60,851 bases of DNA, taken from NCBI GenBank assembly GCA_030600655.1, contig JAUVLP010000003.1, forward strand, positions 1-60,851. Direction: 5' to 3'. Of the stretch, positions 28,683-31,308 are shown one piece after another. Below the pieces are notes generated by a model. It searched no databases. It was not told the origin of the DNA and worked only from the letters and a program-made list of their open reading frames with translations. The translations under genes and the position numbers were made by a program. Origin of the DNA: Candidatus Eiseniibacteriota bacterium. Lineage in GTDB: Bacteria; Joyebacterota; Joyebacteria; Joyebacterales; Joyebacteraceae. Positions within the stretch are counted from its first letter, which is position 1; the number at the start of each line of letters is the position of its first letter.

Positions 28683-29363
28683 CTAGAGATGAGACTGTGC
28701 TTCGGCCAGCGTCATGCGAGCCTCGTCGAGCCAGGGCGTGTCTGGATACGTGTCGATGATATCGCGGGACACGGCGGCCACGGATTCCCAGTCGCCGGCG
28801 GCACGGAGATTCCGGATGGCGGCGTTGAGGTACCGAGCTGCAGCCACGGGTTCGTTGTCGGTGTGGGCGGCGACGTCTTGATAGATAGCTGCAGCCTCTG
28901 CGAAGGCACGCTGCTGTTCGAGGACGGAAGCCTTGCCTTCGAGGGCGAGACGATCAAGCGTGCGATCGCCTCGGTGGCGGTCGAGATAGGTGTCAAAATG
29001 CGCCAGGGCCTTGGTGTAGTCCTGCTGGGTGAAGGCCAGGGAGCCGAGGTAACAGGTGGCGGCGCTGGCGCCTCTGGTGCCCGGGTAGAGGTCGATGAGG
29101 CTCTCGTACTGGGTCTGGGCCTGGGTGATAAGGCCGGAGTTGAGGGCCTGTGATGCCTCGGCCAGCGCGGCAGCGGCGGCTATCTCTGTCGCTCGCCGTG
29201 AGCGCGTGACCATAGCAACAACGGCTATGATAACTATGACGGCAGCGAGACCGATCAGAACCTTGTTCAGGTGTTCCTCAATGAACTTGGTGCCCTTCGC
29301 CGTTGTCTCGAGGAGCACATCGTGCTTGAGCTGCTGCTTGGTTATCCGTGTTCTCTTTCCCAA
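28683..29363 (-). CDS. Single-TM TPR protein (YfgM-like)
   Basis: RITKQQLKHD N-terminus, one TM, TPR helices (YPGT, YPDT); GGAGG RBS before TTG 29363. Confidence 0.8.
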   Translation of the reverse strand: MGKRTRITKQQLKHDVLLETTAKGTKFIEEHLNKVLIGLAAVIVIIAVVAMVTRSRRATEIAAAAALAEASQALNSGLITQAQTQYESLIDLYPGTRGASAATCYLGSLAFTQQDYTKALAHFDTYLDRHRGDRTLDRLALEGKASVLEQQRAFAEAAAIYQDVAAHTDNEPVAAARYLNAAIRNLRAAGDWESVAAVSRDIIDTYPDTPWLDEARMTLAEAQSHL

Positions 29364-29472
29364 AGGATCCTCCGAAAGTCGTTGATTGATCAGTTTGGCC
29401 GCACCAGCCTCGTCTCTGCCCGGACTGCGCATTGACAGGCTGCCGGAGACGACACGCTATGTTCAATCCCAA

Positions 29473-29501: not shown

Positions 29502-29602
29502 GTCAAACCGGATTTTGGGAAGGGAGCGCATGGGACATCGTGACCCACCCAGCCGGGTGAGGCAGGCGGCTGGGCCGGGGTACATATGCAGGCATACGGA
29601 AA

Positions 29603-29632
29603 GAGGGGCCTTCGCTTTCGCGAAAGCCCCTC
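29603..29632 (-). terminator. Rho-independent terminator
   Basis: GAGGGGCTTTCGC-GAAA-GCGAAGGCCCCTC followed by TTT on minus strand. Confidence 0.7.
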
Positions 29633-29692
29633 TCCCACCGTACTTCGCGCTTTCCCTTCCTGCGCGGCCGAGGAAAGCGTTTGCTCGTCGTT

Positions 29693-30361
29693 CTACCTGT
29701 ACAGAGCCTTGATGTTCGTCCAGCTCTCAACCTCGACCGGGCTGCTGCCCTCCGGGAAGTGAATCACGGCGTGGTCAGGAGCCGTCACCGTGATGTCGTC
29801 ACACCAGTAGTCGGTGTGGTCGGGATCCATCGTCGAGGGCGTGCTGTAGAGACGTCCCTCGACTACCAGAGCGTTGCCGTTTCCACCTGCGAACGTCCAG
29901 GTGTGGCTGACTAGATCCCAGCCCGTGCCTGCCGTGTACTCGGAGTTGCCCCCGGCCGAGCCGAGATACGTGGCAATGTCGATCGAGTCAGAGTAATGAC
30001 CCCAGATACGCCACGAGGGGCTCGAGCCCGACGTGATGTCGTAGCCGTAGAACATGACGTCGATAACGTCGCCGTCGTTCAGGTTGGTGATCCATGCCAG
30101 GAAAGCCTGCGGCGTGGAGCTGTGCGGATCCTCAGCAACGTGAAGGTAGAAATTGCCGTCGACGGCGCCCGGGCACGTGTAGTCCGGAAGCGTCGAACCC
30201 TGCGAGCCGGTCTGCGCGCCTGAAACGTTCGTCGCGCCAACGAGGTTGCCGTAGGAACCGAGGATCGTGCCGCCGTCTTCCCAGCTGTAGTTCAGCGTCT
30301 GAACGGCAAGTGCCGGCGTCGCGAACAGAACGACGATAGCGAGAATGAGCAGCTTCTTCAT
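29693..30361 (-). CDS. Secreted beta-rich protein with C-terminal PVEVESWTNIKALYR tail
   Basis: Sec signal MKKLLILAIVVLFATPALA; GGAGG RBS; Thr/Ser/Gly/Asp/Trp-rich body. Confidence 0.85.
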   Translation of the reverse strand: MKKLLILAIVVLFATPALAVQTLNYSWEDGGTILGSYGNLVGATNVSGAQTGSQGSTLPDYTCPGAVDGNFYLHVAEDPHSSTPQAFLAWITNLNDGDVIDVMFYGYDITSGSSPSWRIWGHYSDSIDIATYLGSAGGNSEYTAGTGWDLVSHTWTFAGGNGNALVVEGRLYSTPSTMDPDHTDYWCDDITVTAPDHAVIHFPEGSSPVEVESWTNIKALYR

Positions 30362-30602
30362 TGTGCCCTCCATCTGTACGGGGCCGTTTCGCGGCCTCCG
30401 TTGGTGAAAACAACACTTCGTCTCGTGAACGCGCGACCCTTGTCTATCCGACTCGTTGATGCAGCACTCCGAATCACGCGGCAGTACACTCACCACAAGC
30501 GAAAGCGTTCCCGCTCCACCTCCTTGTGCATTTGTCTCACCGGCTCTGGGATCATCCCCGCCGCCGATGTTGTTGTGTCACCCATTGATGACCCACGACA
30601 CT

Positions 30603-30669: not shown

Positions 30670-30698
30670 ATTATATCATGAAGCCTGAATTCAGTCAA
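30670..30698 (-). promoter_or_regulatory. Near-consensus sigma70 promoter
   Basis: TTGACT-17 bp-TATAAT on minus strand. Confidence 0.8.
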
Positions 30699-30891: not shown

Positions 30892-31173
30892 CTACACCAC
30901 GGTCCTGTGCCGGTCCTTGAGCTCCCCCGTCTTGCCCTTGTTCCAGCCGCTTGTGCGCGAGAAGTATCCGGTCACGCGCGTGATGTGGTCGACGTCCCGG
31001 CCCTGTGCACAGGCGCCCGTGATCGTCTCGAGCGTATTGTTCTCAACGGCGTTGAGCGTGCAGTGTGTCAGTGTCTCGAATCTGGTGTTCTTGATGAGAA
31101 CACCCTCGTCATCGAGCTGGTAATCCCAATTCTCACTGCTACCGAGCCAATTGGTCAGTTCCTCCAGCTTCAT
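30892..31173 (-). CDS. Small stand-alone protein with class III RNR (NrdD) C-terminal glycyl-radical motif
   Basis: 93 aa ending HITRVTGYFSRTSGWNKGKTGELKDRHR; GAGAGG RBS before ATG 31173. Confidence 0.85.
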   Translation of the reverse strand: MKLEELTNWLGSSENWDYQLDDEGVLIKNTRFETLTHCTLNAVENNTLETITGACAQGRDVDHITRVTGYFSRTSGWNKGKTGELKDRHRTVV

Positions 31174-31308
31174 CCGAACCTCTCTCTGATTCTGTGCGCA
31201 GCTCCCGCTCTTCCGGTCCGCGCCACGTCTCATCGGCCGCCGCCTGGCTGGTACCTGCGTGACACCACCGGTTCAGCTTGTCTATTTACTGGGCGATTCG
31301 AGTCAGTA

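Follow-up and report, generated by a model that had tools for sequence, protein, structure and literature searches.

The LPXTG, PEP-CTERM and GlyGly-CTERM signals and the C-terminal domain (CTD) of type IX secretion systems (T9SS) each led to the discovery of a protein-sorting machine. IPTL-CTERM, LPXTG, GlyGly-CTERM and MYXO-CTERM are short C-terminal tags borne by many unrelated exported proteins. According to passages of a study of solved translocon-substrate complexes, known T9SS CTDs are folded, contain at least three strands and bury about 1,850 Å2 in the translocon, and the only conserved contact of type A CTDs is a single lysine bound by the backbone of PorV (PMC10994853). Short CTDs of about 60 amino acids (aa) are still functional in Prevotella, according to excerpts of a second study (PMC11969387). 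Here, we analyze a C-terminal tail encoded in a 60,851-nucleotide stretch of DNA, referred to as the window, from a Candidatus Eiseniibacteriota bacterium (assembly GCA_030600655.1, contig JAUVLP010000003.1). The target gene, at 29693..30361 of the minus strand, encodes a protein of 222 aa that ends in a 16-residue peptide, very probably an address label of a kind not described before. The tail is specific in its position and portable, and its occurrence is coupled to that of signal peptides. In orthologues, it is interchangeable with PEP-CTERM; it is independent of exosortase, co-occurs with the T9SS and excludes a CTD on the same protein. We consider it probable that this peptide serves as a portable C-terminal tag by which Sec-exported proteins that end on the cell surface or outside the cell are sorted or anchored. 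The chance that it belongs to a new sorting system is fair.

The open frame containing the target gene spans 29693..30496 of the minus strand, and the ATG at 30361 gives the 222-residue product. Residues 1-19 (30305..30361) form a classical Sec-type signal peptide composed of MKK, a hydrophobic run and ALA. This N-terminus passes our signal-peptide heuristic, and AlphaFold2 (AF2) predicts a helix at residues 2-12 with a low predicted local distance difference test score (pLDDT). The mature body (residues 20-201, 29759..30304) is predicted as a β-sandwich, with strands of pLDDT above 90, in a model with a mean pLDDT of 87 that was calculated from an alignment of 60 of the 120 listed homologues. 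The closest structures in a Foldseek search are CBM22, CBM4 and the cleaved-adhesin domain K1 of gingipain (best E 4e-6, template modeling (TM) scores 0.44-0.64), and the fold of the model suggests that the body is probably a carbohydrate-binding or adhesin-like module. Pfam and NCBIfam searches returned no families for the target protein at E≤1. The mature body of 187 aa contains 22 aspartates and glutamates versus two lysines and arginines. It is followed by the linker FPEGS (residues 202-206, 29744..29758), where homologues change between tail and PEP-CTERM and where F202 and P203 are nearly invariant, and by the tail SPVEVESWTNIKALYR (29696..29743). The stop codon TAG (29693..29695) directly follows the terminal arginine, so that positions 29693-29770 of the minus strand translate to AVIHFPEGSSPVEVESWTNIKALYR and the stop. 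Residues 202-222 have a pLDDT of about 55 and are modeled as a linker and a short helix (213-221) that is not packed on the body. An earlier reading of the sequence alone (the sequence-only reading) had placed a tail here and described a Sec-exported, very acidic, β-rich protein whose tail is unlike its body; the gene, its composition and the model agree with this description.

The tail recurs throughout the genome, which comprises 2.61 Mb in 248 contigs and is rated 99.4% complete. A six-frame translation yields 21,256 open reading frames (ORFs) of at least 60 aa. The core W-x2-[IVL]-K-x2-[YF]-[RK] occurs in them 63 times: 57 times at the exact C-terminus, four times within 1-4 residues of the stop, and twice internally. 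A looser tail pattern is matched by 58 ORFs, 57 of which were analyzed further, one 63-aa ORF without a start codon being left aside. At the DNA level, a pattern of tail plus stop has 49 matches in the genome, and the reversed pattern has none. The logo of the 57 tails gives the consensus [ST]-[PA]-V-E-x-x-[ST]-W-G-x-I-K-[AS]-[LM]-Y-R-COOH. The lysine at position -5 is near-invariant, the terminal residue is arginine or lysine in 57 of 57 tails, and constraint extends to all but about one of the last ten positions. The P-V-E motif is followed by only ten residues, ending in a single arginine or lysine, and there is no membrane-spanning stretch. The net charge of the last ten residues is +2.2, on bodies with about -10 per 100 aa. 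Their mean helical hydrophobic moment is 0.47, compared with 0.33 ± 0.17 for other C-termini, and 19% of this background reaches 0.47; of the amphipathic, basic-tipped tail proposed earlier, the basic tip is general and the amphipathic character is weakly supported.

The bearers of the tail are exported and diverse. Gene-level statistics are based on a rough call of 2,205 genes. By the signal-peptide heuristic, 46 of 50 tail genes have signal-peptide-like N-termini (excluding four tail genes truncated at contig ends), compared with 54 of 67 T9SS-CTD genes and 421 of 1,919 other genes. A Pfam family was found in 24 of the 57 bearers: Beta_helix/NosD in 13, Chlam_PMP only in three, FG-GAP in three, Cleaved_Adhesin in two, and Cohesin, LTD and CBM_20 in one each. 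The other 33 have none, and no match covers the tail. Choice-of-anchor J domains of NCBIfam are present in three of the 57. When tails were removed and the proteins compared with the whole proteome by BLAST, 15 of 54 bearers had no paralogue, and about 16-20 bearers belong to one β-helix superfamily. The target itself has one tailed paralogue in the genome, with 35% identity. The regular expression offered in the sequence-only reading matches 54 of the 21,256 ORFs. Its expectations that the tail would extend beyond orthologues of one protein and be enriched among proteins with signal peptides are both borne out by these counts.

Models of known sorting signals do not recognize the tail. At E≤0.1, no NCBIfam sorting-signal model matches any of the 57 tail proteins. 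A lenient scan of 48 tail fragments, with a cutoff of E≤10, returned five single chance matches, none of them to such a model. The PEP-CTERM models, applied to the 57 tail proteins, had no match at E≤0.1 (NCBIfam) or E≤0.001 (Pfam). The tail contains no motif or helix of the LPXTG/sortase or GlyGly-CTERM/rhombosortase type and has no NCBIfam match to these systems. It is also not the β-signal of outer-membrane proteins, since it ends in arginine or lysine and is detached from a soluble β-sandwich body. A PDB search with the tail profile gave no matches. These results agree with the earlier claim that the tail is not LPXTG, PEP-CTERM, GlyGly-CTERM, a T9SS domain or a β-signal.

Tail proteins differ in part from the T9SS cargo of the same genome. 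The genome encodes SprA and a PorU-PorV operon and has 76-84 matches to T9SS CTD models. Our own CTD profile identifies 92 CTD proteins, with no overlap with the 54 tail genes. Of the 2,205 called genes, about 7% bear a C-terminal tag of one of three types (a T9SS CTD in 92, the tail in 54-58 and PEP-CTERM in five), and about 2.5% of the genes bear the tail. The bodies of tail and CTD proteins have similar net charges per 100 aa (-10.3 and -9.6), compared with -2.0 for the rest of the proteome. The median length is 322 aa for tail proteins versus 636 aa for CTD proteins, and the cysteine content per 100 aa is 3.2 in tail proteins, 1.35 in CTD proteins and 1.24 in the rest. The contrast in size and cysteine content suggests two classes. 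Their genes are clustered: a tail gene adjoins a CTD gene in 10 of 54 cases (random sets, mean 3.1, maximum 9 in 500 draws) and another tail gene in 11 of 54 (random mean 2.3, maximum 10).

The tail is present in genomes of three GTDB phyla, in line with the spread over uncultured phyla related to the Fibrobacterota-Chlorobiota-Bacteroidota (FCB) group proposed in the sequence-only reading. In the window's own phylum (one family, eight genera), all 31 genomes have matches, with 26-87 per genome compared with 0-1 for reversed-pattern controls. One relative within the window's family is titled Candidatus Effluviviaceae (L080). Genomes at least 80% complete sampled from a second, neighboring phylum contain matches in 148 of 151 cases (median 11 per genome), and genomes sampled from a third, small phylum in 10 of 10 (13-46 per genome). 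When a stricter tail pattern was run against one genome per species, at least 132 stretches with a match were found. Among the 80 matches listed, most are from Candidatus Eisenbacteria, and the others are from Latescibacterota, Krumholzibacteriia, Effluviviaceae, 'Gemmatimonadota', 'Fibrobacteraceae' and 'bacterium'; five of the listed genomes have 25-34 tail matches each. In relatives, small paralogous tail genes are arranged in tandem, with four to six per array (L196, 7862-12801, minus strand; L203, 8165-12793, plus strand; L198, 10690-18484, plus strand). In a literature search that lay outside most subscription journals, no paper was found on the tail strings, on sorting signals of Eisenbacteria or on an Eisenbacteria T9SS. 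The main-text passages of the Effluviviacota paper contain no occurrence of T9SS, 'secretion system', 'C-terminal' or PEP-CTERM.

Direct support for reading the tail as a tag comes from orthologues that carry PEP-CTERM in its place. The target has 290 homologues at E≤0.001, and the C-termini were sorted for the best 120 of these, whose bodies are 53-100% identical to that of the target. Ninety-six end in the tail or a slight variant, 22 end in PEP-CTERM, and two are broken or degenerate. The PEP-CTERM ends are composed of A-P-E-P, a hydrophobic stretch of about 17 residues, and RRRR; one of the 22 proteins is so named by NCBI and one carries PF07589. The switch occurs at the same junction, right after the last strand (..IHF), so that the family follows the choice-of-anchor pattern, in which the same body bears different C-terminal anchors. 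We calculated a quick maximum-likelihood tree, with a provisional topology, from 115 of the 120 homologues (five outside 180-260 aa were dropped) after removing the last 24 residues. Eight changes of the C-terminal label are needed on this tree, of which three to five are forced by branches with a Shimodaira-Hasegawa-like approximate likelihood ratio test (SH-aLRT) support of at least 95, and none of 500 label shuffles needs as few. For example, a well-supported pair of tail bearers is nested inside a PEP-CTERM clade. In a second family, that of the choice-of-anchor J protein L047, the tail is kept in 20 of 22 homologues, with no informative swap.

The exosortase that accompanies PEP-CTERM does not follow the tail. 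The genome encodes one exosortase (227 bits) and has five PEP-CTERM matches; three PEP-CTERM proteins found by regular expression have no homology to any other called protein, tail bearers included. Among the 151 genomes of the second phylum, 62 have a strong exosortase (E<1e-30), and seven genomes with weak or fragmentary matches were counted as lacking it. The median tail count is 8 in genomes with exosortase versus 13 in those without (Mann-Whitney p 7e-4, a value that overstates the relation because the genomes are related and not independent). A strong exosortase is present in 11 of 45 genomes with at least 20 tails and in 19 of 25 genomes with at most two. The exosortase is therefore ruled out as the reader of the tail, as it is missing from most tail-rich genomes, and it seems to represent an alternative system. 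Both systems may deliver proteins to the same place, as suggested by the repeated swaps between tail and PEP-CTERM and by the inverse relation of the tail to exosortase.

The tail co-occurs with the T9SS. SprA was detected in 30 of 31 genomes of the window's phylum, the miss being a genome 57% complete, in 151 of 151 genomes of the second phylum and in all 12 genomes sampled from the third. At their C-termini, the CTDs encoded here have [RK]-K-M-V-L-L-[KR], which loosely resembles the I-K-A-L-Y-R of the tail. In profile comparisons with hhalign, the probability of a relation of the tail profile was 0.1% for 80 CTDs of the genome and 0.15% for 22 PEP-CTERM ends. A co-fold of PorV (residues 22-327, 51-row alignment) with the mature target (residues 20-222, 60-row alignment) scored 0.00, which bears neither way on binding. 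The PorU-like/PorV operon is located at G000:C2 (L192 1-1410, 1444-2427). At least three further PorV/PorQ-like barrels are each encoded directly downstream of a T9SS-CTD gene (G000:C79:20892-22433, C110:7834-8886, C183:2454-3335), a layout that recalls cognate shuttle proteins of type B cargo.

Several other explanations of the shared ending can be weighed against these observations. That it reflects chance or common descent and is no functional module deserves next to no credence. The 16-20 bearers from one β-helix superfamily might suggest descent, but the reversed-pattern controls, the bearers without paralogues, their unrelated folds, and the repeated swapping of the tag within one family already contradict it. 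We give hardly more weight to the tail being a degenerate PEP-CTERM processed by the genome's exosortase. Such an origin would account for an exosortase accompanied by only five PEP-CTERM matches, and for the replacement at the same junction with P-V-E where P-E-P stands. It is already contradicted by the distribution of exosortase among tail-rich and tail-poor genomes; moreover, the tail lacks a membrane-spanning stretch, and the PEP-CTERM models do not match it. A periplasmic tag for quality control, chaperone binding or degradation, read for example by a PDZ-domain protease, is very improbable. Readers of the PDZ type require the very C-terminus, where the motif strictly lies, and the tail is disordered and accessible in the model. 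However, a degradation mark is unlikely to be placed on such a share of genes and kept in three phyla, it would not replace a sorting signal in orthologues, and the bodies are composed like extracellular cargo.

Two further alternatives keep the tail as a signal and dispense with a reader of its own. In one, the tail would be a minimal T9SS signal read directly by the SprA/PorV translocon, mimicking the lysine-bearing last strand of a type A CTD. The presence of SprA in every sufficiently complete tail genome is consistent with this, as are the mutual exclusion of tail and CTD on one protein and their shared ending of lysine, hydrophobic residues and [KR]-COOH. The part of the structural study describing PorV contacts leaves one lysine as the only conserved one of type A CTDs (PMC10994853), and CTDs of about 60 aa work in Prevotella, as excerpts report (PMC11969387). 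Nevertheless, a 16-residue peptide cannot bury the roughly 1,850 Å2 that these passages give for a CTD (PMC10994853), no T9SS model or hhalign comparison links the tail to CTDs, the two sets of proteins differ in length and cysteine content, and orthologues swap the tail with PEP-CTERM and not with a CTD. We judge the minimal T9SS signal unlikely. In the other, the tail would be a self-sufficient, enzyme-free docking peptide that attaches without a covalent bond to a scaffold on the surface, to lipopolysaccharide or exopolysaccharide, or to a leaflet of a membrane. Analogues are the small dockerin and the C-terminal amphipathic helix of Escherichia coli PBP5. The predicted short helix has W, I, L and Y on one side with K and R flanking, and the basic tail sits on acidic bodies. 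In addition, attempts to link a processing enzyme to the tail were unsuccessful, a Cohesin domain is present in one bearer, and bearers adjoin CTD proteins. Docking is nonetheless quite improbable, as the tail has an ordinary hydrophobic moment, a generic lipid anchor does not hold nine of ten positions fixed across three phyla, and the conserved [ST]-P-V-E and the crossing of the outer membrane are left unexplained.

We therefore favor a portable sorting or anchoring tag and propose how it may work. The N-terminal signal peptide would carry the protein across the inner membrane. The body would fold in the periplasm, where the cysteine-rich composition of tail proteins may matter, and the 16-residue tail would be left free on its short linker. 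A conserved envelope receptor would recognize the tail through its sequence and free C-terminus and direct the protein to its final place. The tail would play the role that PEP-CTERM and exosortase have in other lineages, without a membrane-spanning segment and without an exosortase. The constraint on nine of the last ten positions across three phyla, together with ordinary amphipathicity, points to a protein receptor rather than plain membrane binding. We place this reader most likely at the outer membrane, acting alongside the T9SS or jointly with it, because the T9SS is present in every tail genome and tail genes cluster with T9SS cargo genes. The [ST]-P-V-E motif, six residues upstream, where P-E-P stands in PEP-CTERM, may be a processing site. 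The destination is probably the cell surface or the medium, given the binding-type bodies, an acidity like that of T9SS cargo, and a tag that replaces the signal of surface or exopolysaccharide-associated proteins. Passage through the outer membrane may use the T9SS (directly or via a dedicated shuttle), a secretin, or something new. From these patterns we infer the targeting as such, the recognition of a free C-terminus, the final location of the proteins and any cleavage, such as one at P-V-E. More tentatively, the tail may be the substrate mark of a wholly new sorting system of the diderm envelope. A dedicated receptor or transpeptidase would then read a membrane-free peptide with a free C-terminus, by recognition like that of the peroxisomal targeting signal type 1 (PTS1), and folded proteins would be handed to the outer membrane or fixed to the surface in several uncultured phyla, with PEP-CTERM and exosortase repeatedly displaced. 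We regard this joint claim as possible but doubtful.

Several points weigh against a dedicated sorting tag. No reader was found in gene neighborhoods or in three phylogenetic profiles, an approach that the sequence-only reading had suggested for finding co-occurring genes. No gene family other than those bearing tags recurs beside tail genes, as judged from clustering of 216 genes within ±4 positions. All sampled genomes of the three phyla have a T9SS, and its co-occurrence with the tail therefore cannot discriminate. The T9SS is also not the sole possible exit route, as the genome encodes three secretins. The profile comparisons show no likeness of the tail to T9SS CTDs or PEP-CTERM. Two candidate readers that neighbor tail genes gained no support. 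Three paralogues of Peptidase_C25, the gingipain/PorU family, are encoded within four genes of tail genes (G000:C70:499-3648, C140:1-3198, C47:3-1064), two of them without a CTD, and the family is also close to tail genes at one locus of a relative. Peptidase_C25 has 2-12 or more matches in all 151 genomes, including the three tail-less ones (10, 5 and 5), and its counts do not track tail numbers in relatives. A GT-C glycosyltransferase with PMT_2 and tetratricopeptide repeat (TPR) domains is encoded next to a tail gene in this genome and, in another phylum, next to an array of tail genes. It is present in 148 of 151 genomes, several copies in each, the tail-less ones included, and a paralogue adjoins a CTD gene. 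Finally, tail cleavage and the arrival of tail proteins at the surface are conjectural, and all of the organisms are uncultured.

The neighborhoods of tail genes in this genome, and those of tail arrays in five relatives, are mostly housekeeping. The tail array of locus L196 has genes for an AglB-like oligosaccharyltransferase and for an OMP_b-brl_2 barrel at its flanks. The oligosaccharyltransferase was rejected as a reader: it stands beside this six-gene array in one relative and has no homologue in the genome of the window. An island of about 70 kb (L200-L202, G186:C1:4205000-4274999) contains many small ORFs with recurrent C-terminal sequences and scattered single tail genes, and looks like a repetitive or mobile region. 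Three IMG/VR contigs have a tail match, which in the two inspected ends an ORF with a signal peptide. These two contigs of about 39-40 kb encode a cysteine-rich tail protein of 138 aa (L213, 1501-1917, minus strand) and a larger tail protein (L215, 1501-2724, minus strand). Tails on viral contigs belong either to phages using the host tag or to host fragments filed as viral.

In the window, a promoter-like site composed of TTGACT, a 17-nucleotide spacer and TATAAT with a TG is located at 30670..30698 of the minus strand, about 310 nucleotides upstream of the target ATG. It is a pattern match from a consensus scan, with 11 of 12 consensus positions, and shuffled sequences have a mean of 0.4 sites. 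The terminator scan called no canonical terminator for the target gene. A GC-rich inverted repeat at 29600-29640, about 55-90 nucleotides downstream of the stop, lacks a T-run and was not called by the scan. Directly downstream of the target, positions 28683-29432 of the minus strand encode a protein of 249 aa in which a single N-terminal membrane helix is combined with a periplasmic TPR domain (TPR_21/YfgM-like, TPR_16). TPR domains are able to bind C-terminal peptides; the adjacency of this gene to the target is no evidence of such binding. A 113-aa ORF at 30892-31233 of the minus strand matches only the extreme C-terminal part of the anaerobic ribonucleotide reductase NrdD (PF13597 positions 525-560, E 9e-9), and may be either a fragment of a gene or a small glycyl-radical-type protein that stands alone.

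At least three uncultured phyla have the tail, on tens of proteins per genome, and it has no Pfam or NCBIfam entry. In annotation, it could be used to flag the exported surface proteome of bacteria like Effluviviacota, Eisenbacteria, Krumholzibacteria and Latescibacteria, including proteins of seep and soil communities that are putatively polysaccharide-binding or adhesin-like. The tail poses a defined search problem, that of its reader. A destination shared with the tail may also help explain the fate of PEP-CTERM proteins.

The architecture of the tail, which has no transmembrane segment and no folded domain and appears to depend strictly on a free C-terminus, is unlike that of known bacterial signals. 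PEP-CTERM with exosortase (TIGR02595, PF07589; enzyme PF09721) resembles it as a short signal at the extreme C-terminus of signal-peptide proteins, with many unrelated bodies per genome, and in its order of a small proline/glutamate motif, a hydrophobic part and a basic end. Unlike PEP-CTERM, the tail has no transmembrane helix; its motif is P-V-E, followed by the near-invariant S-W-G-x-I-K, and only ten residues come after the motif, with a lysine mid-way. The type A CTD of the T9SS (TIGR04183/PF18962; here the FlgD_ig-like PF13860) is likewise a C-terminal signal of Sec-exported, acidic, surface-type proteins and is found in the same genomes. CTD and tail are mutually exclusive on each protein, their genes are clustered, and both end in lysine, hydrophobic residues and a terminal basic residue. 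The CTD is, however, a folded β-sandwich of 70-90 aa, whereas the tail has 16 residues and is predicted to form a free linker and a short helix of nine residues; tail bearers are about half the length of CTD bearers and richer in cysteine. IPTL-CTERM (TIGR04174) has P-T-L-S-E-W-G at the start of its helix, resembling the P-V-E-x-x-S-W-G of the tail, a likeness that is not borne out by a model match. Unlike the tail, IPTL-CTERM, LPXTG/sortase, GlyGly-CTERM/rhombosortase and MYXO-CTERM signals continue into a membrane-spanning helix and a basic cluster.

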